Source of the DNA: a virus
Virus record (IMG/VR): IMGVR_UViG_3300048918_000310
Coordinates: 1 to 48,193 of that record
Length of the DNA stretch: 48,193 bases
Direction: 5' to 3' (one strand)
Shown: piece after piece, positions 18,816 through 46,790 of the stretch
How the letters are laid out: each line of letters begins with the position of its first letter
How positions within the stretch are numbered: the first letter of the stretch is position 1
The notes under the pieces: model-generated
Told to the model about the DNA's origin: nothing
Database searches by the model: none
What the model saw: only the letters and a program-made list of their open reading frames with translations
Made by a program: the position numbers and the translations under genes

Positions 18816-21800
18816 ATGAAAAAGCCCATCATAGGGCCAAAACAGCATGCCGCTTTCCGGGATAAATACCTGGCAGCGATCATCGCAGCAGCGGCCCTTC
18901 TTTTAAATTTAACCTCATCAGCTCAAACTTTGGATACATCCAGGGTACGGCAAGGTGTGTTCGCTAATCCGGGATATGATTATATTGGCTTAGGTACATC
19001 GAGGACTTTAAGACCTCCACAGGATACTTTTCCGCAAGCGGCCCGTGACAGTGGCGCAATTAGCGTTAAAAATGGTACTATATATCTGTGGAGAAATGGG
19101 CGCCATATACCGTATAGTAGTGGCGGCGCCGACAACAGTATAACAACCGGCAGTCGAACAGTCAATGGTGACTATATTCAGAATTGGAACCACCACTGGT
19201 TTTATCTCAACAACCTGAGGGCGCTTAATATAAACAGCAATAGACCGGATCCTAATCTGCCACTTAACAACAAGGTATTTAACTTTTGGAGTGATAGCAC
19301 CTATAATTCAACAGCCCTGCAATTGGCCTGGGGCCTGAAGGACCAAAGCAATTCATTTACTGACAGTCTGCACTTTGAGATTAATAGCAATAAGGATTAT
19401 ACGTACTTAACCCATTGGGTTGACAAGCAGCAGAAGTATGTCGAGATGGATCTGTCACCTTATCTATCCGACCCTACTATAAACATATTGGCGGGTGATA
19501 CAAGCAAATTCGGGATGTACCAATTCGGGGCCGGGTATGCATCCTTGCAGCCACAAGATTCATTGCGCGTTAAAGCTGTTCCGGCAACCACTGCACCAAA
19601 AGTATTAGGCTTTCGCTCAATCAGCGGCGATGTGGGAACCGTTGTATATATGGATGCGCCTACAGGCGGAGGCGGTGCTCCATCCGGTCCAGCTGGCGGC
19701 GATCTTACTGGAACATACCCCAATCCAACAATTGCCAATAACGCGGTCACTAATGCAAAGGCTGCCCAGATGGCCGCGCATACGTTCAAAGGTAATAATA
19801 CCGGATCAACAGCTAATGCAAGCGATCTTACTGCAACACAGCTTACTGCCGAATTAAATGTCTTTGGTGCGAGTACAAAAGGGCTTGTGCCGGCTGCGGC
19901 CGCTTCGCCATCGTCTTCTAAGTATCTTTCGGAGGACGGAACTTTCTCAACGCCATCTGGCGGCAGTTCGTCAACTGCGTCTCAGGGGCTTATAGCCTCC
20001 GGAAGTGACATTCGTCTGGGTAATACAGATAGTAGCACTACGGGGCAGATGACACCTAACCGTTACATCATAGGGACGTCGGGAAAGAAATTAGATGTAT
20101 CAGTCAGCTGGTTTGAAAGCGATACAACCCGCAGAAAGATTAATGGGCGTTATAATCTCGACTCGTTGTACTTTCTTGGCGACTCACACACAACCGGTAT
20201 TGGGGCTTCCTCTCCAACGAAAGCTTTCAGTACCCAAACATCTGCTGCGCTTGGGTTCACTGAAAAAAATCTGGGTGTAGGCGGAACTACCATGATAGAT
20301 CACTGTAAGGTTTCAATTGTTCCTAATTATTCGGCTACTACACCTGGTAGCTTTGTTATTATAAACTTCGGAACTAATGATGCACGTAATGCCGCGGCCA
20401 GTGTACCCGGTTATGATACGACTACATTTAAGATTGTATACAATGCAAAGATTGATAGCTTACATAATATAAAAGGCTGGCCGCTCGATCATATAGTGAT
20501 AAAGCAGATGGAATACAGTACGGAAGGTGGTTCATTCACTGAGTTCATAAAATTCAAGAATGCCACTAGAACCGTAGCATTAACAAAAGGAACTTTATTC
20601 GATGCAACCTGGGATAGGATGGCTGCTGATGCAGGACCAGGTTTTGTTGGCGCTGATGGTTATCATCCTAATGATGATGGTTACGCCTTCAGCGCGTACG
20701 GGCTTATGTTCTTATTAAGAAGTCAAATTAAGAACGGGAATCAGGTAATGGCTATTAATGGCGCTACTGAATTTAAAGACCTGTATATAAAGCAAGCTGA
20801 TACATCTGCCACAACTACAATGCCCGCAGGTGTTGATAGTACTGGAAAGCTGGTTAGAATGACGCCAAACTCTTTTATAAGGAACAACGGGAATTCAGCA
20901 CTTCCTAATGCCGGTAACTTTTCTATTAGCGGTAGAGGTTATGCAGCAACAGCGATAACATCATCTAGATTAGAGGTGTATGGAGCTGCATCTGCTCGTG
21001 ACGTGGGAGTTCCAGCATTACAGGGATGGGTTGACGGTTCTAATCAGGCGCACATATGGGCAGTGAATTGGAATACCGGTGGAACAATGCCCCTTTATCT
21101 ACACGAATACGGCGGAACGGTCCAGGTTGGACCAGGAACACTAAACGGGAGTGCCCGGCTATCCATTGGCGGTAATTCAATTGCAACCGGTTCATATCAG
21201 GGGATGGGTGCTTTTGCTGGTAACGCAGCAGGCCCATCTATGCAGTTATATTATGCTTCTGGCGGGTACGGTGGATTGCAGGCTTATGATAATCCCAATT
21301 CACTTGCAAAACCATTGGCCCTACAAGAATTCGGAGGAAATACAATGATCGGCTCCGCTACTGATAACGGGTATAAACTTCAGGTAGATGGCGAGAGCCA
21401 GCTAAAGGACCGAATATTAACCGGTCGCAACAGGACACTTCATAATCAGGGGCTAACTGGGTTGACGCTATCGATTGCAGATGCGACGTATACAGATGAC
21501 AACACAGGCAACGGTGGTACTGTAAGCCACGTTGTGGCGGCTTCAATCGGCCAGCCCACATTAGCCGCAATGGGTACCGGTGTAACCTATACGACCGCAA
21601 GTACGGTTTATCTGAAAGGCGGCCCTGTTGCAGGTTCTAATGTTACAATCAGCAATCCCTATGCATTATACGTTGAATCTGGCAAAGCACGACTGGGAAC
21701 TGTAAATACAGGAAGTAGCTCCGATTCTGTTTTGGTAATGACAGCAGCTCACGAGGTAAAAGCTGTCGCGCAAAGTTCTATAGGTCCGGTTGTATTCAAA

Positions 21801-22049
21801 GGTTCCACATCTTGGGACCCGACTAGTATAGGTGCTAATTCTAGTACATCTATAACCTTTACGGTTACCGGCGTTTCACTCGGCGACCCAGTAACAGTGT
21901 CTAAAGTTTCTGGTTCATATAGCAATGGAGAGGTCTACTTCGCTTATGTGTCCTCGCCAAATTCAGTCACCATTCAATTGCAGAACACTAGCGGCGGATC
22001 TTTCGATATTACTTCCGACACATTTAATGTCATCGTAATTAAATATTAA
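18816..22049 (+). CDS. Tail fibre or tailspike with an internal SGNH/GDSL hydrolase (esterase) domain
   Basis: GDLTGTYPNPTI fibre motif at ~19696-19735. SGNH blocks are FLGDSHT, GVGGTT, INFGTNDA and DGYHPND (~20160-20730). Confidence 0.75.
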   Translation: MKKPIIGPKQHAAFRDKYLAAIIAAAALLLNLTSSAQTLDTSRVRQGVFANPGYDYIGLGTSRTLRPPQDTFPQAARDSGAISVKNGTIYLWRNGRHIPYSSGGADNSITTGSRTVNGDYIQNWNHHWFYLNNLRALNINSNRPDPNLPLNNKVFNFWSDSTYNSTALQLAWGLKDQSNSFTDSLHFEINSNKDYTYLTHWVDKQQKYVEMDLSPYLSDPTINILAGDTSKFGMYQFGAGYASLQPQDSLRVKAVPATTAPKVLGFRSISGDVGTVVYMDAPTGGGGAPSGPAGGDLTGTYPNPTIANNAVTNAKAAQMAAHTFKGNNTGSTANASDLTATQLTAELNVFGASTKGLVPAAAASPSSSKYLSEDGTFSTPSGGSSSTASQGLIASGSDIRLGNTDSSTTGQMTPNRYIIGTSGKKLDVSVSWFESDTTRRKINGRYNLDSLYFLGDSHTTGIGASSPTKAFSTQTSAALGFTEKNLGVGGTTMIDHCKVSIVPNYSATTPGSFVIINFGTNDARNAAASVPGYDTTTFKIVYNAKIDSLHNIKGWPLDHIVIKQMEYSTEGGSFTEFIKFKNATRTVALTKGTLFDATWDRMAADAGPGFVGADGYHPNDDGYAFSAYGLMFLLRSQIKNGNQVMAINGATEFKDLYIKQADTSATTTMPAGVDSTGKLVRMTPNSFIRNNGNSALPNAGNFSISGRGYAATAITSSRLEVYGAASARDVGVPALQGWVDGSNQAHIWAVNWNTGGTMPLYLHEYGGTVQVGPGTLNGSARLSIGGNSIATGSYQGMGAFAGNAAGPSMQLYYASGGYGGLQAYDNPNSLAKPLALQEFGGNTMIGSATDNGYKLQVDGESQLKDRILTGRNRTLHNQGLTGLTLSIADATYTDDNTGNGGTVSHVVAASIGQPTLAAMGTGVTYTTASTVYLKGGPVAGSNVTISNPYALYVESGKARLGTVNTGSSSDSVLVMTAAHEVKAVAQSSIGPVVFKGSTSWDPTSIGANSSTSITFTVTGVSLGDPVTVSKVSGSYSNGEVYFAYVSSPNSVTIQLQNTSGGSFDITSDTFNVIVIKY

Positions 22050-26820: not shown

Positions 26821-28200
26821 TTATCCAGCGAACGATGTTTTGAGCCCCTTTACTTTGTTATGCTCTCGTTTATCGTTATCCACATCGTATATCTTCCTCA
26901 CCATGGCGCCCGAGGTATGGGAGTTGTGTTCGGCGGCTGCCATCACAGGGTCAAAGGATAGTTCCGCCTTCAGTTTCTCCAACTCATTTATAACCTCAGT
27001 TGTGTGCAGGTGCTTCAGGTCGTATTGTCGTGAGTCTATTCCGAGTTTCTTTTTTATGTGTACCCGCCACCTACGGCCTACCTGTTCCGGGCGAATAGGT
27101 TTTGGTCCAGGTAAAAGACCTTTGCTGAATACATAGTCATCAGGACCGCAACCGGCCATAATTTCAACCCAATAGGGAAGTGCTACGTCCTTAATGGTTT
27201 TCCAAACCCACACCCATTTCTTTCTTTTTTTGATAAGCACTTTGAACCGCTGGCCGGCCAGGTCCACGTTTTTGCCCTGGACCTTCATGATCTCTTTAAT
27301 GCGGGCCCCCGAGTGGTAGAATATGTTTAGGTATCGTAGGTAGTCGGGGAAGTCGACTATCAGGCTTAAATGTATTTTACGGCGCTCTTCCGGGGTGAGC
27401 ACTTTTCTTTTCACCTGGTCGGGATCTTCTATTGAAGTATCTTTTTTGGAAATCTTTTTGATCGGGTTATATTCTACGATCTCCTGGCGATCCAGTTCGC
27501 TGTAAAGAATGCTGAGGTATTTCTTAAAATTATTAAATTCGTTTTCGTTCCATACTTTCGGGGATACGATTTCGATTTTAACCGGCACCATTTTGCCATT
27601 TACGCAATGCTTTTCTGTCCGCAATTTGCCGGCCACTTCAACCCTTTTGTTTTTAGTCCTGGTAACTGTTAAGTTCTTGCAATTGTCCAGGATTAGCTTT
27701 ATGTCTCTGGCTTTAATTTGAGCCAGGGGTACAGTGTTTTTCTTTAAGAGAATCGCGGATTGTTCTACAAATCTTAATACTTTTTCTATACAACGGCTGG
27801 TATCCCGCTCAAAGGTAAGTTCACTGTATATTGTTTTCAGTGCCTGGATAAATGGGGTGGTGGGCGAAAGGTCTTGTTTGGCGGCATCCAAAACTACCGG
27901 CTCGGGAGGTGCCATATATGCCCCGGTAATCGGGTTGTAGCCCTTCGCGTCGATCTTGTTTTTTTCCCGGTCAATAAAGGCCCTGGTGATTGCCTGACGC
28001 TCTTCAAGCCCGGCAACATGATTCATGCCCAGGATCTTTATTTGTTTCCCTTTTTTTAGTTTGGGATTATTGGCGAATGCAGGATCATAAAAGCGGTAAT
28101 TGATCCGCCAAGGTTTTACAGTACTGGCTTTTTTAGTATTCCAGTTTGCTGGCTTCACCGTGATCTCTGAACGGTAACAGCCATTGAATGTAGTAATCAT
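26821..28200 (-). CDS. int: Tyrosine recombinase (phage integrase)
   Basis: 459 aa. The C-terminal catalytic region has HSGARIKE, DLKHLHTT and HNSHTSGAMVRKIY (Tyr nucleophile context). It is adjacent to a tRNA-fragment attP. Confidence 0.9.
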   Translation of the reverse strand: MITTFNGCYRSEITVKPANWNTKKASTVKPWRINYRFYDPAFANNPKLKKGKQIKILGMNHVAGLEERQAITRAFIDREKNKIDAKGYNPITGAYMAPPEPVVLDAAKQDLSPTTPFIQALKTIYSELTFERDTSRCIEKVLRFVEQSAILLKKNTVPLAQIKARDIKLILDNCKNLTVTRTKNKRVEVAGKLRTEKHCVNGKMVPVKIEIVSPKVWNENEFNNFKKYLSILYSELDRQEIVEYNPIKKISKKDTSIEDPDQVKRKVLTPEERRKIHLSLIVDFPDYLRYLNIFYHSGARIKEIMKVQGKNVDLAGQRFKVLIKKRKKWVWVWKTIKDVALPYWVEIMAGCGPDDYVFSKGLLPGPKPIRPEQVGRRWRVHIKKKLGIDSRQYDLKHLHTTEVINELEKLKAELSFDPVMAAAEHNSHTSGAMVRKIYDVDNDKREHNKVKGLKTSFAG

Positions 28201-28689: not shown

Positions 28690-29178
28690 TTAAAGCCTGG
28701 TCAGAAGTGTTTTGCAAAGATTTGTAATTGCACTTTTATTTTTTGAGCTTGGCTCGAATAATATATCGTTAACCTTAATAGCAACTATTTCGGTAGATGA
28801 AATGTCTTTAAAATCTTCCTCTGAAATGATATAAGTCGAAGATGTATAAAATTTGGATCCGATTGGCATGTCTGCGTTGCCAAACCACTGACCGCGAAAA
28901 ATACGGTCGTTTGCTCCCTTCAACATGCATTCTTTCACTATTGAATCTTTTAGTTGCAACTTTAAACCAGGCGTTGTTTGAATTAAGAAGGATATAAAAA
29001 AGGTTTTGGTAGTATCGCTAATTTTTGCAGAAACACCGGACTGAAGTACGTTAGTTATTGTTGCGTTGCCTATTGAAATGGTTCTCACCTTTGTAAAAGG
29101 ATCTTGTTTATCATATAAAACCTTCTGAGCTTGTATGATTGATGGGAGCATAACTAAAGCTATTAATAAACGATTCAT
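28690..29178 (-). CDS. Secreted protein (162 aa) with a Sec signal peptide
   Basis: MNRLLIALVMLPSIIQAQ-K. AT-rich gene. Confidence 0.6.
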   Translation of the reverse strand: MNRLLIALVMLPSIIQAQKVLYDKQDPFTKVRTISIGNATITNVLQSGVSAKISDTTKTFFISFLIQTTPGLKLQLKDSIVKECMLKGANDRIFRGQWFGNADMPIGSKFYTSSTYIISEEDFKDISSTEIVAIKVNDILFEPSSKNKSAITNLCKTLLTRL

Positions 29179-29317
29179 GGTTAAGTGTGAATAGGTGCCA
29201 AAGCTAACGCTGGCGGTTAATATATTGTTGTTATATTCGATGTGTGATTAGTTCCAATGTATACCAGCCTAAATATTACCCTTATCCATTCTTGGTATTT
29301 TTATTTATTTTAACGTG

Positions 29318-29518
29318 TTAGGACAGGTATTTAACAGATTTTAATGTAGTCGCAACGCAGCTATTCATTAAATTCATATACCCTTTTACGTTAACCCTAA
29401 AACCTGCTTTTCTATGTACCGACTTCATTCTGGATAGTATTTTGATTACTTTTGCGGCCTCATATAACCGGGTATCCCGGTCTATCATATTGGTTATTAT
29501 AGTCAACCTGCGGTTCAA
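29318..29518 (-). CDS. Hypothetical protein (66 aa, TTG start); may be the 3' part of a split gene
   Basis: Overlapping ORF with no canonical ATG. Confidence 0.3.
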   Translation of the reverse strand: MNRRLTIITNMIDRDTRLYEAAKVIKILSRMKSVHRKAGFRVNVKGYMNLMNSCVATTLKSVKYLS

Positions 29519-29681
29519 AACTGGTAATTTTTAACACAACGGGTTCTATAGTGGCGCCGATAAGGCGCGGCGTATAGTTACTGTTGTGTGGCATACCAGT
29601 GCCCGAACCGCGGTAATGAAGGCCGCGCTCTTTTTTGCCTTTTCTTATCCATTCAGACACCAGGTCCCGGCGTAAATACAT
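29460..29681 (-). CDS. Hypothetical protein (73 aa); may be the 5' part of a split gene
   Basis: ORF overlaps the next ORF by 59 nt in another frame. Confidence 0.3.
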   Translation of the reverse strand: MYLRRDLVSEWIRKGKKERGLHYRGSGTGMPHNSNYTPRLIGATIEPVVLKITSFEPQVDYNNQYDRPGYPVI

Positions 29682-29720
29682 TTTAAATTGCCATTGTCAT
29701 GAACTCAAAAATCTCATGCG

Positions 29721-30161
29721 TTAACTGTCCTCACTCCCAAGATTGCCCTGTAAATCATCTGCCTCAAGATTTGCGCCGACAAGCTTGCCCACTTTTTCCA
29801 TTGCTTTTAAAAACTTCTTTTGATCCCATTGAACCGTGTTCGACTCCATTATCTGGTATTGTCCATAACCCCGAATCTCAGCCCGGATATATGCCTGTCC
29901 ATTTTCTATCTTCTGTAACGCCTTGGATATTACCCTTAAACTAGCTGCTATATCATTATTCTCATAGGTTGAATTATTCAACTCTTTGGAATAAACAATT
30001 CTCAATTGATTATAAACCGTCTCCAAATCTTCTCCCTTGCTTAATAATTGAGTGAGGGTTTTTTCTGCATATCCAGCCCCGGACGATATTTCCTGCTGGG
30101 TCTTGCCAGTCTTTTTCTTTATATCCTTGATTAAGTCTTGAAGGTTTTTTTTAGATACCAT
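29721..30161 (-). CDS. CI-like repressor (N-terminal HTH, no S24 peptidase domain)
   Basis: KKTGKTQQEISSGAGYAEKTLTQLLSKGE HTH. Divergent from a Cro-like gene across an operator-rich spacer. Confidence 0.65.
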   Translation of the reverse strand: MVSKKNLQDLIKDIKKKTGKTQQEISSGAGYAEKTLTQLLSKGEDLETVYNQLRIVYSKELNNSTYENNDIAASLRVISKALQKIENGQAYIRAEIRGYGQYQIMESNTVQWDQKKFLKAMEKVGKLVGANLEADDLQGNLGSEDS

Positions 30162-30170
30162 CTAATTAAA

Positions 30171-30235
30171 AGGTTGAAATTTTCAATCTTTTCCAAATCA
30201 TTTAAAGGTTGATAAAAGGTTGAAATATTCAACCT
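30171..30235. promoter_or_regulatory. Operator set: aggttgaaattttcaatct (30171-30189), half-site aggttga (30206-30212) and the near-perfect palindrome aggttgaaatattcaacct (30217-30235)
   Basis: Read directly. A TAnnTTTG -7-like box (tatatttg, 30235-30242) abuts the last operator. Confidence 0.5.
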
Positions 30236-30281
30236 ATATTTGATTCATGAATGATTCACGAACGAATCAAAAGTAAATCAA

Positions 30282-30509
30282 ATGAACAATACAGCAGCAA
30301 ATAACACCACAGAATCAGTGCAACAGCTTTCATGGGAAGTTATTGGAGCTCTGGCCGATGCCTTTAATGTGGATTTTCAGACGATACCACGTTGGATAAA
30401 AAAGAATGATATCAGATTAACAAGTGAGCCTGCAAAAGCGGTTTTCGAGAGATATGGGCTTGCCTGGGATTCGCAAACTGCGACAGCAAATCAGTTGCAA
30501 AGCTTGTAA
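30282..30509 (+). CDS. Cro/excisionase-like small DNA-binding protein
   Basis: 75 aa, first rightward gene. ALADAFNVDFQTIPRWIKKN is HTH-like. Confidence 0.5.
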   Translation: MNNTAANNTTESVQQLSWEVIGALADAFNVDFQTIPRWIKKNDIRLTSEPAKAVFERYGLAWDSQTATANQLQSL

Positions 30510-30546
30510 AAATATTACACATCTGCAATACCCCTTCTCTTACACA

Positions 30547-30765
30547 ATGGCAAAGATCGATACAACCAAACAAATTATAAACGGACTTGACGAACTGGAA
30601 GCAGCAGCGCAGCTGATGGAAGATAAGGCTATCCAGTTAAAAGATATCTGTCGCAAGGCAAAGGCGACAATGGGGGAGGTGTCTACCTCTCCCATTAAAA
30701 AAGACCTTGACAAAATAGTTGCAGATGCCCTGGCCAAAAGTGCAGCCCGCAGAAAGAGAGCTTAA
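30547..30765 (+). CDS. Hypothetical helical protein (72 aa; start at MAKIDTT)
   Basis: The internal ATG avoids overlap with the previous gene. Confidence 0.4.
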   Translation: MAKIDTTKQIINGLDELEAAAQLMEDKAIQLKDICRKAKATMGEVSTSPIKKDLDKIVADALAKSAARRKRA

Positions 30766-31134
30766 CCGAATTGTTGAAAAACCGCCTAATCTACGCCCTA
30801 TGAAAATAAAGTGCTTACCAATGACCACAGAACAGGCAATTGCGGCCTGTAATCGAATTATGAAACTCTTAAATCGTTAATCGTGCAACTGATTAAAAAT
30901 CCCGAACAGACTTCTGAATTGCCAACTGAGGAAAATGAACCTGTAGAAAAAGAAGTCATCGAATCAACACCCTGCTTGTATGGTAACGAGCACGTTCATC
31001 CCGTTTTCCAAAAAATTTTACACGCATTTATAACGCATTAATTGGCGGTTTCATCAGGACAGCGCCTGCCAGGTAAATCCGTACCACCAGGCGCACTTTT
31101 AACCTCCTTTAAAAAACAACTAAATCAGGATATC

Positions 31135-31509
31135 ATGAACCCTACTTTCTACATCCATGTAGCGATTAGTACTGTCATTATCATCGTGTTTGCTTTACTA
31201 CTCGGTACTCATTCTTTCAAACGGAAGAAACGCCTCAGTTTAGCTTTTGAACAACCATCACCAATGTGGTACGCATCTGAGTGCTTCATGTTTCTGAAGG
31301 CGACCATCCTTACCTGCAATACTCCCGATGAACTTAAAAAATGCAGGGGACAGGTGGAAATATTTTACGACCGGGAGTTTCGTGCGCCCATTACAAAATG
31401 TGAACGTAAAAAATATTACTCAAGGTTGCTGAAAGCTATAGTCGCAAAAGAAGACTCGTGGAATGCAAAGGTGCTTGACCCAAGCACAGAAGCTTTCTAC
31501 CACATGTAA
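31135..31509 (+). CDS. Small membrane protein (124 aa; start at MNPTFYI)
   Basis: N-terminal TM (VAISTVIIIVFALLLG). Confidence 0.45.
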   Translation: MNPTFYIHVAISTVIIIVFALLLGTHSFKRKKRLSLAFEQPSPMWYASECFMFLKATILTCNTPDELKKCRGQVEIFYDREFRAPITKCERKKYYSRLLKAIVAKEDSWNAKVLDPSTEAFYHM

Positions 31510-31654
31510 TTACTAGTTAAAGGGTACGATCAATAATAACCGCCCTGTTTCCACAGGTCGGTTTCTTAAAAAGTTATTTAGGGTTATGGAGGGATCGCCG
31601 GTGGCGCCATGCTGCCGGCACTTTTTACCGGAATCAAAACTCAACAATAAAGAA

Positions 31655-32110
31655 ATGAAACAACTACAGATCAGCGACACGCTGGCCCGGAAACTCTATC
31701 CCGCTGCGGATAGTGAATTTAGACAATTGCTGGAAGAAAACTTTGGCAAACCGTTTTTCTACGGAAAAATCACCGACCGGATCAAAACCTTCAAGGACGC
31801 TTGCGAGGTGGTGGGCCTTCAACCGACTGAAATTACCTGCTCATATGACTCCGCAGATGATCAGGCGTATAAAAAATTAAAGGTAGTTATTGCTGCCCTT
31901 AATGAGGGTTGGACACCTGACTGGAAGAATGACGATCAACCCAAGTATTACCCCTGGTTTGATATGAGTAATGGCTTCCGTCTCGTCAGCGTGGGTTACA
32001 GCTGCGCCCTCTCGAACGTCGGCTCCCGCCTTTGCTTCAAATCGCGCGAACTGGCTCAATACGCGGCCACGCAATTTGCAGATCTGTACAAAGATTTTTT
32101 CACCCTCTAA
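31655..32110 (+). CDS. DGR target protein 1 (151 aa; start at MKQLQIS) carrying VR1 near the C-terminus
   Basis: Paralogue of target 2, sharing NEGW-PDW-DD-KYYPWFD...GFRL...VGSRLCFKSR. Contains VR1. Confidence 0.8.
   Translation: MKQLQISDTLARKLYPAADSEFRQLLEENFGKPFFYGKITDRIKTFKDACEVVGLQPTEITCSYDSADDQAYKKLKVVIAALNEGWTPDWKNDDQPKYYPWFDMSNGFRLVSVGYSCALSNVGSRLCFKSRELAQYAATQFADLYKDFFTL
31972..32033 (+). repeat. DGR variable repeat 1 (VR1)
   Basis: 62-bp alignment to the TR with 12 mismatches, all at TR adenines. Confidence 0.85.
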
Positions 32111-32125
32111 CCTTCACCATTGACA

Positions 32126-32500
32126 ATGGAACAAATTAAAACATTTGAAGACGCTTGCAAGGTTCTGAACCTTGACCCTGTAAAGGTATTGCCTGATGTA
32201 TCTGCTTTTCCTCCAACGCACCAGGCCGCTTTGACTGCAGCCGGTAAATTGTTCATCATCGCTGATGCACTGAATGAAGGTTGGAAACCTGATTGGAACG
32301 ATGACGATGAATATAAGTATTACCCCTGGTTCGATCTGGAGAAAGACAAGAATAACCCGTCTGGCTTCCGTCTCTTCGGCGTGTTTTGCAACTGCACCGA
32401 CTCGAGCGTCGGCTCCCGCCTTTGCTTCAAAAGCCGGGATATAGCCGAGTACGCAGGTACTCAGTTCGTTGATCTGTATCGTGACCTGATGGTCATATAA
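32126..32500 (+). CDS. DGR target protein 2 (124 aa from ATG 32126) carrying VR2
   Basis: Tandem paralogue of target 1. Contains VR2. Confidence 0.8.
   Translation: MEQIKTFEDACKVLNLDPVKVLPDVSAFPPTHQAALTAAGKLFIIADALNEGWKPDWNDDDEYKYYPWFDLEKDKNNPSGFRLFGVFCNCTDSSVGSRLCFKSRDIAEYAGTQFVDLYRDLMVI
32359..32423 (+). repeat. DGR variable repeat 2 (VR2)
   Basis: 65-bp alignment to the TR with 12 mismatches, all at TR adenines. Confidence 0.85.
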
Positions 32501-32541
32501 CATAAACTGGTTGTGCATTGCGCCGACTGCCGTTTGTCCGT

Positions 32542-32606
32542 GTCTGGCTTCCGTCTCAACAACGTGAATTACAACTACACCAACTCGAACGTCAGCTCCC
32601 ACCTTT
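32542..32606 (+). repeat. DGR template repeat (TR), non-coding, rich in AAC/AAT/TAC codons
   Basis: gtctggcttccgtctcaacaacgtgaattacaactacaccaactcgaacgtcagctcccaccttt. It lies between target 2 and the RT. Confidence 0.85.
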
Positions 32607-32707
32607 CCTAACATAGTGATGCAGACCATGGCTCTTGCCAAAAAATGATTCTTAAAAAACGGAGCGCTGGTACCTACGGGGAACGCGATCCGTCGAAGCA
32701 AAGGCAT

Positions 32708-33679
32708 ATGAAACGAATTAATAACCTGTACGAACAAATTATAAGCGTAGACAACCTGATGCTGGCCGACAAAAAGGCCCGTAAACGGAAGTCTGCCCAG
32801 TACGGTATACAGGTTCATGACCGCTATCGGGAAAAAAACATTGATAGGTTACACAATATGCTTTTGAACAAGACCTACCAAACATCACCCTACCACATAT
32901 TCAAGATTTACGAACCCAAAGAACGTGAAGTCTACCGCTTACCCTATTTCCCGGACCGGATTACGCACCATGCGATATTGAACGTATTGGAGCCCGTTTT
33001 TATGTCCGTATTCACCGCAGATACATATAGCTGCATAAAAAAAAGAGGCATTCACGGCGCGGCTAATGCGGTTAAAAAAGCATTGAAAGATCAGGAAGGG
33101 ACAAAATATTGCCTGAAACTGGACATTAAAAAATTCTACCCTTCTATAGATCACGATGTACTGAAAGCACTATTGCGCAGGAAATTCAAAGATCAGGATC
33201 TCCTGTGGCTAATGGATGAAATTATCGACAGTGCATCCGGCCTCCCCATTGGAAACTACCTGAGTCAGTACCTGGCCAATTATTACCTCTCGTTCTTCGA
33301 TCATTGGCTGAAAGAAGTAAAGCTGGTAAGGTATTATTTCCGCTATGCCGATGACCTGGTGATCCTGTCAGCTAACAAGGGCGACCTGCATAGATTGTTG
33401 AAGGATATTCAATGGTATCTGCAAAGTCATTTAAAACTCAGTATAAAAGGCAATTACCAGGTGTTTCCGGTTGCCTCCCGTAGCATTGACTTTGTTGGTT
33501 ATCGACTTTATCATACGCATACACTTTTGCGAAAATCGATCAAAAAACGCTTTGCCCGCAAAATGGCAAAGAGCCCTAACGGTAAAAGTCTTGCCTCCTA
33601 TTGGGGCTGGGCAAAACACTGTAATAGCAATCATTTACTCAATAAACTACTTAAAAAACCTGCAGGGGGTATAAGGTAA
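32708..33679 (+). CDS. DGR-type reverse transcriptase (start at MKRINNLYEQI)
   Basis: RT motifs: LDIKKFYPSIDH (A), GLPIGNYLSQYLANYYL (B, with the DGR-typical [ILV]GxxxSQ) and FRYADDLVIL (C, YADD). About 323 aa, typical of DGR RTs. Confidence 0.9.
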   Translation: MKRINNLYEQIISVDNLMLADKKARKRKSAQYGIQVHDRYREKNIDRLHNMLLNKTYQTSPYHIFKIYEPKEREVYRLPYFPDRITHHAILNVLEPVFMSVFTADTYSCIKKRGIHGAANAVKKALKDQEGTKYCLKLDIKKFYPSIDHDVLKALLRRKFKDQDLLWLMDEIIDSASGLPIGNYLSQYLANYYLSFFDHWLKEVKLVRYYFRYADDLVILSANKGDLHRLLKDIQWYLQSHLKLSIKGNYQVFPVASRSIDFVGYRLYHTHTLLRKSIKKRFARKMAKSPNGKSLASYWGWAKHCNSNHLLNKLLKKPAGGIR

Positions 33680-33694
33680 CCTGCAATACTTTTT

Positions 33695-34102
33695 ATGGAT
33701 ATAAATGTAAAAGTTACAATCGATGCCGCCCCTGCATTCATGGCACTATTGCAGGGTTTATTATCCGCCGTACCAGCACCAGGTACGCCAACGCCTGCAC
33801 CGGTTAACAAACTTAAAAAGGCAGAAAAGCCTGCCGAGAAAGTTGCCGATCAGATGTCGGCACCTGCCGCTGAAACGCCAGCTGAACAAGCGTTGGAAGA
33901 CTTTCAGAAAGAACTGGATGCCGCAGTAGTTCCTTCTGTTACCATTGAACAGATCCGCGCTGAAATTCCCGGAGCTAAAGCAAAGGTAGGCGCCGATAAG
34001 GTGAAGGCATTGCTTACCAAATATGGTACGGCCAATGTAACCAACTTGCCCCTGGTCAATTACGATGCCTTTTACAATGAACTCAAAACCCTTGCAGCAT
34101 GA
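33695..34102 (+). CDS. Hypothetical protein with a Pro/Ala/Lys-rich linker (135 aa)
   Basis: ORF coupled by ATGA to the next gene. Confidence 0.5.
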   Translation: MDINVKVTIDAAPAFMALLQGLLSAVPAPGTPTPAPVNKLKKAEKPAEKVADQMSAPAAETPAEQALEDFQKELDAAVVPSVTIEQIRAEIPGAKAKVGADKVKALLTKYGTANVTNLPLVNYDAFYNELKTLAA

Positions 34103-35265
34103 GTCACGCAGTCTTATCACCCAGTGGCGCCGAGCGGTGGCTTAACTGTACTCCATCTGTCCGGTTGGAACAGCAGTTCCCGGATAACGCTGGTGTAGCA
34201 GCTGCCGAAGGTACACTGGCGCACAGTCTCGGGGAGTTATTGCTTCGCTATGCGCTTAAACAAATAAAAAAGTTTAAGTATGAACAGCAGCTGGCTGAGA
34301 TCAAAGCCAGCGAGTTATACGATAACTCAATGATGGATCACTGCGAGAACTATCGGGATTTCGTACTTGAACGCCTATACGATGCCAAAGCGCGCACTAA
34401 AGATGCCGTGATCGCCCTGGAACAACGCATTGATCTTACAGAGTTTGTTCCTGAAGGCTATGGCACTACCGATTCCAACATCATCGCGGATCATATACTG
34501 GATGTGGTTGACCTTAAATATGGTAAAGGTGTACCGGTATCAGCTGAAAAGAATAAGCAGATGATGCTTTATGGCCTTGGTGCCCTCAACGCCTTTGATC
34601 TCATGTACGACATCCACACCGTTCGTATGACCATTTATCAGCCTCGTATTGACAATGTGAGCACCTGGGAAATATCGGTCAAGGATCTGCGGCATTGGGC
34701 TGAAACGGAGTTACGCCCTCTGGCAAAGCTGGCCTTTGATGGTGCCGGTGAATTTGTAGCTGGTAAACATTGCCGGTTCTGTAAGGCTCGTGGCGCCTGC
34801 AAAGCAAATGCTGATTACAACCTGGTGCTGGCAAAGTATGAGTTCAAGGAAGCGGATCTCTTAAAGGATGAAGAGATCAGCGAGATCCTTGACCGGGCAA
34901 AGACTTTTACAGATTGGCTGAACGGTGTAACAGATTATGCACTCGACCAGGCGGTGAACCATGGTAAAAAATGGCCAGGTTATAAAGTGGTCGAAGGTCG
35001 CAGCAACCGGAAGTACACCAGCGAAGATGCAGTAGCCACCTTGTTAATTGAGAAAGGGTACAAGGAAGAAGTGATTTACGAGAAGTCAATCCTTGGAATT
35101 GGTAAAATGGAAAAGGCCATCGGCAAGGATATGTTTGCGGCTCTACTTACTCCGCTAATTATTAAACCAGCTGGCAAACCAGCTCTTGCGCCTCTCAGCG
35201 ACAAACGGGCGGAATATCACAGTAACGAGGCAGCTGCCATCGAATTTGCCGAGGTGGACATTTAA
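34099..35265 (+). CDS. PD-(D/E)xK nuclease, DUF2800/Cas4-like
   Basis: N-terminal MSHAVLSPSGAERWLNCTPS and a C-terminal Cys cluster CRFCKARGACK. Sits in the usual DUF2800-DUF2815-PolA order. Confidence 0.75.
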   Translation: MSHAVLSPSGAERWLNCTPSVRLEQQFPDNAGVAAAEGTLAHSLGELLLRYALKQIKKFKYEQQLAEIKASELYDNSMMDHCENYRDFVLERLYDAKARTKDAVIALEQRIDLTEFVPEGYGTTDSNIIADHILDVVDLKYGKGVPVSAEKNKQMMLYGLGALNAFDLMYDIHTVRMTIYQPRIDNVSTWEISVKDLRHWAETELRPLAKLAFDGAGEFVAGKHCRFCKARGACKANADYNLVLAKYEFKEADLLKDEEISEILDRAKTFTDWLNGVTDYALDQAVNHGKKWPGYKVVEGRSNRKYTSEDAVATLLIEKGYKEEVIYEKSILGIGKMEKAIGKDMFAALLTPLIIKPAGKPALAPLSDKRAEYHSNEAAAIEFAEVDI

Positions 35266-35306
35266 CAATTATTCATTCACAACCAATTTAAAAATTCATT
35301 TAAACT

Positions 35307-35876
35307 ATGAGTACTACAACAGCTCAGGAGCAATCAACAAAAATCGTAATTGGCCCCGTACGGCTCAGTTACCTGCACGTGTGGGAACCTTCTGCAATGG
35401 AAGGCCAGACGGAAAAGAAGTATTCTGCTTCTTTAATCATTCCCAAAAAAGATAAAGCGACGGTAGCCAAAATCAATGCGGCTATGGATGCCGCAAAAGA
35501 ACAGGGTAAACACAGTAAATGGGGTGGCAAAATTCCTAAAAACCTATGGAATCCGCTTCAGGACGGCGACGATGAAAAGCGTTCAGAAGATGAAGCTTAT
35601 GCCGACAGCTGGTACATATCAGCAAAAGCCGCTACCAAACCTGGTATTGTTGACAAAAACCGTAATCCCATTCTGGCGCAGGATGAAGTATATAGCGGCT
35701 GTTATGGTTATGTGAGTGTGACCTTCTATGCGTTCAATAAGAACGGTAACTCTGGTATAGCTGCAGGTCTTAATCACATTATGAAGGTGAAAGACGGTGA
35801 GCCCTTGGGCGGCCGTAGTTCAGCTGAAAATGACTTCGCTGACATTCAACTGGAAGATGACGACGACTTAATGTAA
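35307..35876 (+). CDS. DUF2815-type ssDNA-binding-like protein
   Basis: VRLSYLHVWEP N-terminus and an acidic C-terminal tail (LEDDDDLM). Supported by gene order. Confidence 0.7.
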   Translation: MSTTTAQEQSTKIVIGPVRLSYLHVWEPSAMEGQTEKKYSASLIIPKKDKATVAKINAAMDAAKEQGKHSKWGGKIPKNLWNPLQDGDDEKRSEDEAYADSWYISAKAATKPGIVDKNRNPILAQDEVYSGCYGYVSVTFYAFNKNGNSGIAAGLNHIMKVKDGEPLGGRSSAENDFADIQLEDDDDLM

Positions 35877-35883
35877 ACCAGTA

Positions 35884-35915
35884 GGGAGTGCCTTATTGGT
35901 ACTCCCTTTCTTTTT
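35884..35915 (+). terminator. Rho-independent terminator
   Basis: gggagtgcc-ttatt-ggtactccc (one mismatch), followed by tttcttttt. Confidence 0.7.
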
Positions 35916-35935
35916 CAACCCTCAAATCGTTTAAA

Positions 35936-36301
35936 ATGTCTTTGACCTTTAAACAACTCCGTAACGCTAACATATCCCGCTTGCCGACATTTAAGAACAA
36001 GCATGGGGAACCGGCGCACAGTGAACCAGATGGTTCAGATTGGTCCCCTGCTCAATGGTTGCAGGCGCTTGCAGGAGAGGTTGGTGAATATGCCAATATT
36101 CGGAAAAAATATGAACGTGGTGATATTGATGAATTAACCTTTCACAAAGAAGCCAGGAAAGAACTTGCAGACATTCAAATCTATCTCGATTTACTGGCTT
36201 TCCGTTTAGGCATTGACTTGGGAGATGCCACCATCCAAAAGTTCAATGAAGTCAGCAAAAGAATTAACAGCCCTGTTAAATTAAACCCCATCAGACTGTA
36301 A
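35936..36301 (+). CDS. MazG-like nucleotide pyrophosphohydrolase (start at MSLTFKQ)
   Basis: LAGEVGEYANIRKK and ELADIQIYLDLLA resemble the MazG EXXE and EXXD helices. Confidence 0.65.
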   Translation: MSLTFKQLRNANISRLPTFKNKHGEPAHSEPDGSDWSPAQWLQALAGEVGEYANIRKKYERGDIDELTFHKEARKELADIQIYLDLLAFRLGIDLGDATIQKFNEVSKRINSPVKLNPIRL

Positions 36302-36303
36302 CC

Positions 36304-38250
36304 ATGCACACCCTCGCCATCGATATAGAAACCTACAGCTCGGTTGACATCGGCAAATGCGGTATGTATAAATACCTGGAAAGCCCTGATTTTGAAATTA
36401 TGCTTTTCGCTTATTCATTTAACAATGAACCCGTGCAGGTGGTTGACCTCACTGACCTGGAAGAATTACCGGTAAAGATCAAAGATGCCCTGAACAATGA
36501 CGATGTTTTGAAAACTGCCTGGAATGCCCAGTTTGAACGCCGATGTATTGAGAAGTTTTTTAAAATCCATTTGCCAATACAACAATGGGAATGTACGATG
36601 GTAAAAGCTTCTATGTTGGGGCTTCCGCTTTCCCTCGATGCTGCCAGCAAAGCCCTGCAGTTGGAAAATGGTAAGATGGCTGACGGTAAAGCATTGATCC
36701 GTTATTTCTGCATCCCTTGTAAGCCCACTAAAGCAAACGAACAGAGAACCCGGAACTATCCATTGCATGCGCCCGACAAGTGGCAACGCTTCAAGGAATA
36801 CTGTGCGCATGACGTGGTAACAGAACGCACCATTGGAAGTAAAATAGCTTTCTTCCAGGTACCTAAAATGGAAAAACAGCTATATACACTCGATCAACAA
36901 ATCAACGATCGCGGTATTATGATCGACCCGCAGCTGGTTAAGAACGCGATCCGCATTGACATCGAGCACCGCGACCGGTTAACCAAGGAAGCGATCAACC
37001 TGACAGGCCTGGACAACCCTAATAGCGTTGCCCAGCTGAAAACGTGGATAAGCCAGGAAATGGAGGAAGAAGTTGAAAGTCTGAATAAAAAGGATATTCC
37101 CGCGATCCTTGCAAAAACAGATAATACCATCGTTCAGAAAGTATTAGAGCTGCGGCAGGAAATGTCAAAGACGTCTGTTAAGAAGTATGTGGCCATGTAT
37201 AACGCTGCAGGAAAGGATGACCGTGTGCGTGGGCTCCTGCAGATGTATGGCGCCAATCGTACCGGCAGATGGGCCGGCCGCCTGGTGCAGGTTCAGAACC
37301 TGCCCCGTAATGAAATGAAGGATCTGGAACTTGCCCGGACCATCGTACGCAGTGGTGACCTGGAATGTCTGGAACTGATGTATAACAGTGTTTCGGATGT
37401 GCTGAAACAGCTTATTCGTACTGCTTTTATCGCGCCGGAAGGTCGCCGGTTAATTGCTGCAGACTTCTCAGCCATCGAGGCCCGGGTAATCGCATGGTTA
37501 GCCGGTGAGAAATGGCGCCTGGATGTATTCAATACCCACGGTAAAATTTATGAGGCTTCAGCCGCCCAGATGTTTAAGGTGTCCATTGATCTTATCACAA
37601 AAGGATCTGACCTGCGTCAGCGGGGGAAGGTGTCTGAACTGGCACTGGGTTACCAGGGCGCAGTAAACGCCCTGCTTAAAATGGGCGCCCTTGAAATGGG
37701 ATTGAAGGAAAATGAGCTGCCGGCACTTGTTGCCATGTGGCGCCAGGCCAACCCCATGATTGTTAAATTTTGGAATACCTGTCAGCAGGCAGCACATGAG
37801 GCAGTCGAATATCGCACAACAGTAAGTATCCAGCACGGCATAAAATTCTTCATGGAAAAGGGTATTCTATTTATTCAGTTGCCATCCGGTCGTAGACTTT
37901 CTTACCTCCGACCAAAATTCAAACAAGGTAAATACGGCCCTATACTCACTTACGAGGGCATGGACCAAACCACAAAGAAGTGGGGTGAACAGGAAACCTA
38001 CGGCGGCAAACTGGTCGAAAATATCGTACAGGCCACTGCCAGGGACGTGCTGGCTGATTCTATGTTACGTCTGGAAAACAAGTCATACCTGATCGTTATG
38101 CATGTACATGATGAGGTTGTAATGGATATGGCCAGGTCAAAAGGAAGTGTTGAACAGGTAAATGAGATCATGGGTGAGTCAATACCCTGGGCAAAAGGTC
38201 TGCCTTTAAAAGCTGAGTCATACGAAACAATGTTCTATAAAAAGGATTAG
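36304..38250 (+). CDS. Family A DNA polymerase with a 3'-5' exonuclease domain
   Basis: Exo I motif AIDIETYS, Pol motifs RQRGKVSELALGYQGA and HVHDEVVMD. 648 aa. Confidence 0.9.
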   Translation: MHTLAIDIETYSSVDIGKCGMYKYLESPDFEIMLFAYSFNNEPVQVVDLTDLEELPVKIKDALNNDDVLKTAWNAQFERRCIEKFFKIHLPIQQWECTMVKASMLGLPLSLDAASKALQLENGKMADGKALIRYFCIPCKPTKANEQRTRNYPLHAPDKWQRFKEYCAHDVVTERTIGSKIAFFQVPKMEKQLYTLDQQINDRGIMIDPQLVKNAIRIDIEHRDRLTKEAINLTGLDNPNSVAQLKTWISQEMEEEVESLNKKDIPAILAKTDNTIVQKVLELRQEMSKTSVKKYVAMYNAAGKDDRVRGLLQMYGANRTGRWAGRLVQVQNLPRNEMKDLELARTIVRSGDLECLELMYNSVSDVLKQLIRTAFIAPEGRRLIAADFSAIEARVIAWLAGEKWRLDVFNTHGKIYEASAAQMFKVSIDLITKGSDLRQRGKVSELALGYQGAVNALLKMGALEMGLKENELPALVAMWRQANPMIVKFWNTCQQAAHEAVEYRTTVSIQHGIKFFMEKGILFIQLPSGRRLSYLRPKFKQGKYGPILTYEGMDQTTKKWGEQETYGGKLVENIVQATARDVLADSMLRLENKSYLIVMHVHDEVVMDMARSKGSVEQVNEIMGESIPWAKGLPLKAESYETMFYKKD

Positions 38251-46037: not shown

Positions 46038-46790
46038 TTGACCAAAAAGAAAAACCCCATATCGAAGAAACCTAAAGCTGAGATCCCGGCTCTGAATGAT
46101 AAACAGAAACAGTTTTGTCTGGAGTACCTGGTTGATTTCAATGCGACCCAGGCCGCAATACGGGCTGGTTATTCACAACGATCTGCATACGCCATTGGAT
46201 GGACTAACTTACGAATGCCCCAAATTCGCAAACACATAGATACCTTGCTCGAAGAACGATCACTCGGGAAACACGAGGTGTTAAAACTGCTGTCAGATAT
46301 CGCCCAGGGATCATTAAACGACTATTTCACTACTACAACAAAGGTTTATACCCCCCAGGTAAAAAAGGGACTTAAAGAGCTTATAAAAGGGCTTCGCGAA
46401 AAGATCGAGGACCAGCGTAAGCTGATCGCCAGGGCGAAGATTACCGATTCTGACCGCCTGAAAGGATTAGCCAGCCAGGAAATGTTCTGGCTCGAACAGA
46501 TTGCCGCTTACGAAATTGAACTGGAAAGAAACCCCCGGGCAAATAGGATTGTGGATGGCGAAGCCCAGTTGGTTGAAACTACCGAACTGGATATGGTAAA
46601 ATTGGTGAGGGATAAAGAAAAGGGCAGGATCAAAACACTGGTTCCGAACGAATACGGTTATAAGGTAGAGTTATACCCTGCTGATGCAGCATTACGTGAC
46701 CTGGGGCGCTACCATGGTATTTTTGAAAAGGATAATGAACAGGGAAAGCCGAATTTCAACATTGAGGGGCAGCAAATTGTGTTCAAATGA
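46038..46790 (+). CDS. terS: Terminase small subunit (TTG start)
   Basis: LNDKQKQFCLEYLVDFNATQAAIRAGYS matches the Terminase_2 N-terminal HTH. ATGA overlap with terL. Confidence 0.8.
   Translation: MTKKKNPISKKPKAEIPALNDKQKQFCLEYLVDFNATQAAIRAGYSQRSAYAIGWTNLRMPQIRKHIDTLLEERSLGKHEVLKLLSDIAQGSLNDYFTTTTKVYTPQVKKGLKELIKGLREKIEDQRKLIARAKITDSDRLKGLASQEMFWLEQIAAYEIELERNPRANRIVDGEAQLVETTELDMVKLVRDKEKGRIKTLVPNEYGYKVELYPADAALRDLGRYHGIFEKDNEQGKPNFNIEGQQIVFK

Follow-up and report, generated by a model that had tools for sequence, protein, structure and literature searches.

The 48,193-nt sequence of IMG/VR record IMGVR_UViG_3300048918_000310, which was analysed over its full length and is called the window below, comes from a temperate Bacteroidota phage and carries a diversity-generating retroelement (DGR) composed of two small tandem target genes, T1 and T2, a template repeat (TR) and the gene for a reverse transcriptase (RT). 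The observation from which this analysis set out, made from the sequence alone, is real: the DGR targets are these two genes and not the tail fibre, and they belong to a class of DGR target that is catalogued, very common and functionally unexplored. The parts of the cassette are as follows, each target carrying a variable repeat (VR); the initiation-of-mutagenic-homing element is denoted IMH in a VR and IMH* in the TR.

31655-32110, plus strand: T1, the long paralogue and DGR target 1; open reading frame (ORF) of 151 aa by translation; member of the PC_00007 / phrog_11581 family
31969-32036, plus strand: VR1, found by repeat search; encodes SNGFRLVSVGYSCALSNVGSRLC; variable stretch 31985-32016
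32018-32035, plus strand: conserved, IMH-like 3' boundary of VR1, GTCGGCTCCCGCCTTTGC
32126-32500, plus strand: T2, the short paralogue and DGR target 2; ORF of 124 aa by translation; member of the PC_00007 / phrog_11581 family
32359-32426, plus strand: VR2; encodes PSGFRLFGVFCNCTDSSVGSRLC; variable stretch 32375-32406; IMH-like 3' boundary 32408-32425
32542-32609, plus strand: TR, non-coding; IMH*-like 3' end GTCAGCTCCCACCTTTCC, 32591-32608
32645-33679, plus strand: DGR reverse transcriptase; RVT_1 (PF00078), E 3e-19; phrog_1423, E 5e-127

The retroelement and its two targets

A 68-nt direct repeat occurs in three copies, namely VR1 in T1, VR2 in T2 and the TR in the gap 3' of T2. Across a 61-nt core, every difference from the TR, 12/12 in VR1 and 12/12 in VR2, falls on one of the 17 TR adenines, and the non-adenine positions are the same in all three copies (44/44); an adenine-only pattern of this kind has a chance probability of ~3.6e-9 per VR (hypergeometric). 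With N allowed at each TR adenine, the pattern matches exactly three sites in the 48-kb window, those in T1, T2 and the TR, with 0 expected in shuffles, and a search for a remote VR in the tail fibre and everywhere else in the window found none. The tail-fibre ORF at 18816-22049 therefore carries no VR, and the view that the targets are the two small paralogues holds. The window cassette is an adenine-mutagenic retrohoming cassette with two in-frame targets. The TR is rich in AAC and AAT codons (AAC AAC GTG AAT TAC AAC TAC ACC AAC TCG AAC), the variable stretch comprises six AAY, two TAC and one ACC codons, and the VRs are in frame by the DGR criterion that TR adenines fall mainly on codon positions 1 and 2. 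With 15 adenines in nine codons, the mutagenised stretch gives ~1.07e9 DNA or 7.3e8 peptide variants per target. In the proposed mechanism, TR RNA would be reverse-transcribed with misincorporation opposite adenines, and the cDNA would then replace the homologous ~32-nt stretch in either T1 or T2, rewriting the nine codons.

At its 3' end, the TR is unlike both VRs at A52, A59 and C65 (two adenines and one cytosine, with the same change in both VRs), the boundary reading GTCGGCTCCCGCCTTTGCTTCAAA in both VRs versus GTCAGCTCCCACCTTTCCTAACAT in the TR. The Gly and Arg of VGSRL come from this boundary and are invariant or nearly so across the protein family. A VR/TR boundary that differs in this way and encodes a near-invariant VGSRLCF is consistent, at the level of sequence, with a directionality (IMH-like) element. 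No hairpin or inverted repeat like that of BPP-1 was found downstream of either VR, the RNA fold from the TR to the RT start was no more stable than that of shuffled sequence (z = 0.62), and an Rfam scan of the whole window returned no family.

The RT translation is intact, with the DGR-typical IGNYLSQ and catalytic YADD motifs, and is 55-58% identical to annotated DGR RTs of crAss-like phages. Its true start is probably the ATG at 32708 (MKRINNLYEQI...), and the N-terminus MKRINNLYE resembles those of the reference RTs t121 and t122 of Wu et al. (2018); the t121 system is like the window in that its RT begins MKRINNLYEKI and its architecture is A1, with no accessory gene. The order of the cassette is target-target-TR-RT, the TR lying just 5' of the RT as the sole occupant of the T2-RT gap. 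Among the ORFs flanking the cassette there was no Avd-like Pfam match, nor was any other accessory gene seen. Avd occurs in 74% of DGRs and is essential in BPP-1. Its absence here is not disqualifying, because architecture A, without accessory genes, makes up 29% of DGRs (Wu et al. 2018), and the window cassette is a compact, accessory-gene-less DGR of their architecture A1. The 135-aa ORF after the RT was considered as an accessory gene and rejected, since it travels with DUF2800 where the DGR sits elsewhere. When compared with the BPP-1 DGR (mtd-avd-TR-brt), the cassette has in common a TR, an adenine-mutagenic RT, VR replacement, AAC richness of the TR and a differing 3' boundary. However, BPP-1 needs Avd and diversifies a single protein, the 381-aa trimeric tail-fibre tip protein folded as a C-type lectin (CLec) and encoded where the tail module ends, whereas the window has no avd, two small targets with an internal VR, no inverted repeat after the VR and a location in the early region.

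T1 and T2 are co-oriented tandem paralogues, 53% identical, and their ORFs match the sizes of ~151 and ~124 aa first given for the two VR-bearing genes. T2 corresponds to the T1 core without a ~40-aa N-terminal helical extension, and the conserved core that had been seen in both is present in the form of the motifs IKTF.DAC, ALNEGW.PDW, KYYPWFD and VGSRLCFKS. Both proteins match phrog_11581 (E 4e-28 for T1 and 2.5e-29 for T2), which carries no functional annotation; nothing significant was found for either in Pfam, PADLOC or PDB sequence searches, and neither has a tail-related Pfam or PHROG match. By Kyte-Doolittle hydropathy, neither a hydrophobic N-terminus nor a transmembrane (TM)-like segment was found, the maximal 15-residue means being 1.05 for T1 and 1.58 for T2 (the latter in an internal core helix), and the earlier statement that both lack a signal peptide and a TM segment agrees with these values. 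The two are mildly acidic (isoelectric points (pI) 5.5 and 4.6) and are predicted to be soluble proteins without export signals. The VR lies at ~0.77 of the length of T1 and ~0.72 of that of T2, with ~25 codons after it.

Genomic setting in the window and in related phages

Because the terminases lie at the right end and the portal at the left end of the 48.2-kb contig, the window is probably a complete, circularly permuted temperate siphovirus genome. A megablast of positions 29000-37000 against GenBank phages found no close relative. The features of the window, with the cassette in its place among them, are as follows.

250-2058: portal, with capsid genes in the same structural block
10471-14340: tape measure
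18816-22049, plus strand: fibre with GDSL esterase domain
After the fibre: small genes without annotation
26821-28200, minus strand: integrase
29721-30161, minus strand: repressor-like helix-turn-helix (HTH) protein, divergent
30282-30509: Cro-like HTH protein
Before the cassette: small ORFs, including a TM protein at 31042-31509
31544-31557, plus strand: terminator-like hairpin with T run (pattern match)
31597-31619, plus strand: terminator-like GC-rich hairpin, then T run (pattern match; 10-bp stem, 7 GC pairs)
DGR cassette: T1, T2, TR and RT
3' of the cassette: replication block, with the 135-aa ORF, a DUF2800 nuclease, a Gp2.5-like single-stranded-DNA-binding (SSB) protein, a MazG-like protein and DNA polymerase A
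Further genes of the replication block: HNH, primase-helicase, SNF2 helicase, DnaA_C-like protein
46038-46790: small terminase
46787-48121: large terminase

Between the end of the fibre ORF and the cassette there are 9.6 kb, which include the integrase, so the placement of the cassette between the Cro-like gene and the replication module, ~10 kb from the fibre, was correctly described; the 'lysis module' that had also been named gave no family matches. From gene position only, we infer early expression of the T1/T2 cassette. Both terminator-like hairpins fall within the 145-nt gap from the TM-protein ORF to T1, the region having 11 such sites against 5.5 +/- 2.8 expected, and they may make the cassette a separate or antitermination-dependent unit, which the hairpin at 31597-31619 might insulate from upstream early transcription. 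A sigma-70 promoter scan was uninformative (9 sites against 8.7 expected), and Bacteroidota promoters also lie outside this consensus. As for the tail-fibre-like ORF itself, it encodes a GDSL/SGNH lipase-acylhydrolase domain (PF13472, E 5e-12) and a DUF5907 repeat, which suggests an esterase-type, possibly polysaccharide-deacetylating, receptor-modifying fibre.

Relatives of the targets were sought by word-indexed homologue searches and a full hidden Markov model (HMM) scan, and related loci were fetched (L001-L086). The word-indexed search gave 1199 relatives of T1 (~150 aa) and 1628 of T2 (~125 aa), almost all of 120-160 aa and with homologues down to E 1e-98; the full HMM scan gave 5005 family cluster representatives at 50% identity, and at least 552 IMG/VR stretches encode family members. 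When tested in full-length homology, the family motifs (IKTFEDAC, ALNEGW.PDW, KYYPWF and VGSRLCFKS..YA..QF..LY) are matched by T1 and T2. This family is PC_00007, labelled 'Phage_other', that is, non-structural or unknown, with 1.6% of it predicted structural (Roux et al. 2021, Nat Commun 12:3076, PMC8144416, Supplementary Note 8), and with the caution that such clusters could still be unrecognised structural proteins (Roux 2021, PMC8144416). The catalogue pairs IMG 2576065990/91 and 2585424986/87 show a tandem long and short gene followed by an RT, with LNEGW, YYPWF and GSRLCFKS motifs, and are assigned to PC_00007, DGR clade 1, viral origin and host group FCB (PMC8144416). The VR lies at 0.70-0.82 of protein length in the catalogue. 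However, that paper clusters and labels the proteins and does not describe their genomic position, long/short pairing, fold or function, and the window pair is a non-identical new member from another metagenome. Reference targets t120 (123 aa) and t121 (131 aa) of Wu et al. (2018) are also members of the short-paralogue family; they were labelled VR class CLec3 from a VR alignment, and the small proteins were not discussed. In the same set, the accessory protein CH1 is acidic, 160-169 aa long and found only in avd-lacking DGRs (Wu 2018); its size and pI resemble those of the long paralogue, and it might be an unrecognised member of the target family.

When the family was surveyed with and without a DGR, most of the related loci proved to have one, with an RT within 900 nt in 75/81 loci (those with at least 1.4 kb downstream of the last T gene), and RT-less members were found as well. 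The long paralogue precedes the short one in 65 of the 75 RT-bearing related loci; since the loci were chosen with a long-paralogue query, such pairing counts carry an ascertainment bias. Natural single-chain fusions of two family copies also exist (247-353 aa; P0241-P0247, P0257 and others), each copy with its own VGSRL, and a look for informative domain fusions among the best 150 of the 5005 representatives gave only tandem family duplications, without Pfam domains. Because of the fusions and the conserved pairing, the comparison of sequences suggests that the long and short paralogues act together or physically cooperate. Members that stand alone without a TR or RT occur in L003 (a Paraflavitalea prophage), L027 and L035, and three further loci (L018:~2046, L075:~6915 and L078:~6908) retain both targets and a TR or TR remnant, with no RT detected downstream, and look like RT-deleted 'frozen' cassettes. 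RT-less members persist, and therefore the proteins are kept after diversification stops.

In almost every paralogue of the related loci, the VR matches the local TR, and across 93 distinct VRs there are 1234 mismatches at TR adenines and 17 elsewhere. Pairs of near-identical contigs are especially informative about recent change: all differences between L036 and L037 (6/6) and between L076 and L077 (9/9) fall at TR adenines of one VR, with 0 elsewhere in ~2.1 kb, and L005 and L007 differ inside VR1 only. Such cassettes are therefore active in nature, on both paralogue types. For the window phage itself, population variation was sought, and this yielded a single further contig, from Logan (48,096 nt, SRR35925602), which is identical across the 1375 nt that were compared. 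This identity and the existence of RT-less relatives would fit the alternative that the repeats are decayed or due to chance, in which case T1 and T2 would be conserved early proteins of an ordinary kind whose diversification has ceased. However, that alternative is scarcely credible in view of the chance probability of the adenine-only pattern (~4e-9 per VR), the intact RT ORF and motifs, and the VR-only, adenine-only differences between otherwise identical contigs of related cassettes.

Two side observations concern the make-up of these cassettes. In 68 related loci (75 have an RT beside the targets), a ~100-aa ORF oriented like the RT starts between -22 and +36 nt of where the RT ends; it begins MKKFSELGISVQIKSF..., matches phrog_19665, which has no assigned function, and has no Pfam match (e.g. 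L011:8004-8306). The ORF occurs in several phage backbones (loci L008-L086) and may thus be a fourth part, or an accessory protein, of DGRs of this type; the window subclade, with its DUF2800/SSB/PolA module, is without it. Additionally, L046:1254-1604 is a third short-paralogue gene, located in the early region ~5 kb upstream of the main cassette, whose VR still fits the cassette TR (7 adenine mismatches, 0 others) and which is thus a remote target.

The position of the cassette in other phages is as follows.

L001, L005-L007, backbone like that of the window: cassette directly 5' of DUF2800, the ssDNA-binding gene and DNA polymerase A
L004, L085, lambda-like: cassette inserted between ssDNA-binding and polymerase genes
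L084 and ~30 IMG/VR loci, Mu-like (transposase, MuB-like ATPase, DUF3164, DUF4494): early region
L086, GpA-type terminase: cassette between a DNA methylase and DUF5131/PAPS reductase

The early-region position first noted for the window, which is lambda-like as are L001 and L085, thus recurs in four different phage backbones, and in at least 75 related loci the cassette never adjoins tail genes. RT cluster t122 of Roux holds targets of both PC_00007 and the structural cluster PC_00002; since this RT lineage also serves tail-fibre targets, the location of the cassette follows the target and not the RT. In the window, L001 and L005-L007 the cassette abuts genes for DUF2800, an ssDNA-binding protein and DNA polymerase A, and in L004 and L085 it sits between ssDNA-binding and polymerase genes. 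These positions would be in keeping with a replication or host-takeover adaptor, which would bind a protein of host replication, recombination or transcription that is not the same in every host, recruit or inhibit it for the phage, and so tune compatibility with the host machinery rather than counter defence. This seems decidedly unlikely, given that the Mu-like loci, L086 and BI-TP1 (a temperate phage described below) have neighbours other than replication genes and that core host replication proteins are conserved, and hence odd partners for a library of ~1e9 variants.

More distant homologues (~30% identity) occur in the temperate Bacteroides/Phocaeicola phages BI-TP1, PV4-TP1 and LoVEphage, as well as in several crAss-like phages. 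BI-TP1 gp84 is a single-copy, 194-aa protein that aligns with the family over the whole core, and its VR of ~40 aa matches, with adenine-only differences, a TR beside a tail protein and RT ~56 kb away; its neighbours are several DNA methyltransferases, a PAPS reductase, radical-SAM proteins, an HNH nuclease and a tRNA ligase. Similarly, gp91 (134 aa) of the crAss-like cr52_1 is a remote target of a tail-protein DGR, such that one TR serves a tail protein and a family member in both phages. A second DGR target of Quimbyvirus was located in a 'defence-related island' (Benler et al. 2021, PMC8008677), a recent paper (Nature 2025, PMC12629997) cites Benler for LoVEphage, where a distal target lies near counter-defence genes, and both propose a role in phage-host conflict for the distal targets; for these relatives such a role, with the targets as possible counter-defence genes, is thus already in print. 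From the matching neighbourhood and from that citation, BI-TP1 appears to be the Quimbyvirus/LoVEphage distal-target system, which resembles the window in the family core of gp84, in adenine hypermutation and in neighbours that are DNA-modification and counter-defence genes, not structural genes. BI-TP1 is unlike the window in that gp84 is a remote second target, the primary one being a tail protein, and that its ~40-aa VR matches a full CLec3-type VR. In contrast, the DGR of the window is dedicated to the family, with a VR of ~22 aa, a tandem pair and no tail target. The family is therefore, by these two set-ups, a recurrent non-structural DGR target, served either by a dedicated cassette or as the remote second target of a tail-fibre DGR.

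With regard to the coding sequences of these two phages, the BI-TP1 RT is annotated as only 271 aa followed by short overlapping ORFs (L091:4713-6256, gp9-gp11, minus strand); this matches a Quimbyvirus RT described as split over three frames (Benler 2021, PMC8008677), and the distal and tail VRs still differ from the TR by adenines only. The cr52_1 tail-protein gene gp18 (L090:2618-3859) has two in-frame stop codons under genetic code 11, which fits stop-codon recoding in this crAss-like lineage.

The sequence-only reading had called two small hypervariable early proteins an unusual use of a DGR. This was overstated, as the family is large and catalogued as PC_00007 (Roux 2021), two members were in the Wu 2018 set, and distal targets near counter-defence genes had been noted (Benler 2021, Nature 2025). 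In the literature searched, no paper on the fold, pairing, position or function of the family was found. What is added here is the PC_00007 identity of the pair, its link to the distal targets of Quimbyvirus/LoVEphage and crAss-like phages, the long-plus-short pairing and fusions, the consistent early-region placement across backbones, the activity in nature and the negative result for a CLec scaffold, to which we now turn.

Fold of the targets and the C-type-lectin question

The structures of T1 and T2 were modelled by AlphaFold2 with family alignments, the models were compared with the PDB and BFVD by Foldseek, and profiles were compared by hhalign. For T1, the predicted local distance difference test (pLDDT) score was 91.9 and the predicted template modelling (pTM) score 0.83; for T2, they were 87.7 and 0.84. 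The modelled core common to both consists of a short helix, a long helix, a two-stranded beta-hairpin and two C-terminal helices, to which T1 adds N-terminal helices, and the variable codons map to the second hairpin strand and the loop after it. At the AAY-templated codons of related VRs, there is ~2-fold enrichment for each of Tyr, Gly and Asp, and Pro hardly occurs, a suggestive fit to a binding surface on that strand and loop.

Foldseek against the PDB gave no match at E <= 0.001 for either model (best E 1.0 and 1.7) and listed no CLec or DGR protein, and the only matches in BFVD were uncharacterised proteins from uncultured phages. The family profile had 0 matches at E <= 10 among all PDB sequences, and Pfam FGE-sulfatase, DUF1566 and Mtd domains were absent from T1 and T2. 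By hhalign, there was 90% probability over 28 columns to CLec3 tail proteins, in VR columns only (13-28 columns across comparisons), and the VGSRL[CAT][FY] end motif of the CLec3 VR class is present in T1 and T2, encoded by the conserved 3' end of the TR and VRs. This similarity is limited to the TR-templated VR and its VGSRL end, and the common TR and RT lineage therefore accounts for it. The sequence-only reading had compared the GFRL of the targets with the GFR[CL] motif that ends CLec- and FGE-like variable regions, and had raised the prospect of a minimal CLec or FGE-like fold. In fact, GFRL stands at the start of the VR and not at its end, the true connection is the VGSRLCF of the CLec3 class, and neither model matches a solved structure, CLec proteins included. 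A CLec fold for the scaffold of T1 and T2 is thus not supported by the models, and a strongly reduced CLec derivative is possible given the predicted nature of the models and the sensitivity of Foldseek; in this the result differs from the CLec3 label of Wu, a CLec assignment not being reproduced for the scaffold. Two other comparisons were rejected. The Ig2 class of Wu also has an internal VR, but Ig1 and Ig2 targets map to PC_00003/00008 and not to PC_00007, and tentaclins, with an N-terminal CLec domain and Ig (immunoglobulin) domains, have a different architecture.

These results bear upon the possibility that T1 and T2 are unrecognised virion components, i.e. small adhesins or receptor-binding accessories on the tail or head that serve classical tropism switching. 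The same TR diversifies a tail protein and a family member in cr52_1 and BI-TP1, the VR segment is homologous to those of CLec3-class tail targets, target clusters without annotation may be structural according to Roux 2021 (PMC8144416), and structural proteins likewise have no signal peptides. Nevertheless, a virion role is quite improbable, as the cassette is never beside tail genes in the loci and backbones surveyed above, PC_00007 has its low share of predicted structural proteins (1.6%; PMC8144416), similarity to solved tail or fibre structures is lacking, and the likeness to tail targets ends at the 28 TR-templated columns.

Possible roles in the infected cell

The reading favoured here, which we hold at about even confidence, is that T1 and T2 are intracellular hypervariable proteins that bind a partner differing between strains, a host defence or takeover target being the most plausible one. 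It draws upon the co-location of the family with early, replication, DNA-modification and anti-restriction genes across lineages, upon the proteins not being predicted structural, and upon the prospect that a variant encoded by an incoming genome would be selected directly in the infected cell. Among the relatives, an association with counter-defence is seen in L086 (DNA methylase, DUF5131/PAPS reductase) and in the neighbourhood of BI-TP1 gp84. Such neighbourhoods in relatives are the sole support for the function suggested in the sequence-only reading, a possible part in anti-defence, exclusion or host takeover. According to this scheme, the T1+T2 pair would work inside the infected cell as a hypervariable binding module and not as a virion part, being expressed from the incoming or induced genome alongside the replication and DNA-modification genes. 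The pair would recognise a variable intracellular partner, most likely a host defence or other strain-variable host factor, and diversification would then widen or restore productive infection after DNA entry, as the post-entry counterpart of tail-fibre tropism switching. Since each genome would express its own variant in the cell that it infects, genotype and phenotype would be linked and selection would be direct.

Several points weigh against this proposal. The papers searched yielded no expression, localisation or interaction data for family members, and gene position is no proof of absence from virions, a matter that Roux 2021 leaves open. The neighbours in the window are replication genes and small ORFs, with no recognisable anti-defence genes among them, and T1 and T2 have no PADLOC or Pfam match. 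With the hairpins 5' of T1, read-through from an early promoter is not assured. Additionally, the amino-acid skew at the variable codons could partly reflect the misincorporation spectrum of the RT, and the idea of a heterodimer derives from gene order and fusions only.

The location of the genes near the immunity region, the independent transcription unit that the hairpins 5' of T1 could mean and the persistence of family members in prophages without an RT would also suit a prophage-borne surveillance or exclusion module, in which hypervariable sensors of competing phages or mobile elements protect the lysogen. By analogy, the DGR-diversified 'antigen sensors' of multicellular bacteria (PNAS 2024, PMC10907252) offer a precedent, since these DGR targets work within the cell in biological conflicts and not on a surface; however, these sensors are cellular, large and multidomain, whereas the window targets are single-domain phage proteins of 124-151 aa with no effector domain. 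Such a module is unlikely, in that no effector domain (NTPase, nuclease, protease or toxin) is fused to the pair or conserved beside it, there is no PADLOC match, and the genes point the same way as the lytic early operon, with the Cro-like gene between them and the repressor; moreover, members are also found in crAss-like phages, whose capacity for lysogeny is not established.

Returning to T1 and T2 as intracellular binders, a more specific and doubtful proposal is that the family has a genuinely non-CLec scaffold, another structural answer to DGR hypervariation, which arose by the grafting of the TR-templated VR module from a tail-fibre DGR into an unrelated small alpha/beta protein, and that the pair is an intracellular 'antibody-like' heterodimer with ~7e8 variants per subunit, on which selection would act in each successive infection for the neutralisation of host immunity proteins that are specific to a strain. 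If this were true, post-entry host range would be evolvable, as adsorption is via tail-fibre DGRs.

In textbooks, phage DGRs are treated mainly as diversifiers of receptor-binding tail proteins of the CLec fold, and the window provides a clean case of an abundant, unstudied alternative, its DGR being devoted wholly to a small soluble pair encoded with early, replication or DNA-modification genes. In the literature searched, no virion proteomics was found for the cultured carriers BI-TP1 and PV4-TP1; together with the LoVEphage isolates, these cultured temperate carriers of members of the DGR-target family make the question testable now. If the pair does act inside the cell against variable host factors, then targeted hypermutation would serve phages after genome entry and not just during adsorption, the view of how host range and counter-defence evolve in Bacteroidota and gut phages would change, and protein engineering would gain a naturally minimal (124-aa) diversifiable scaffold.

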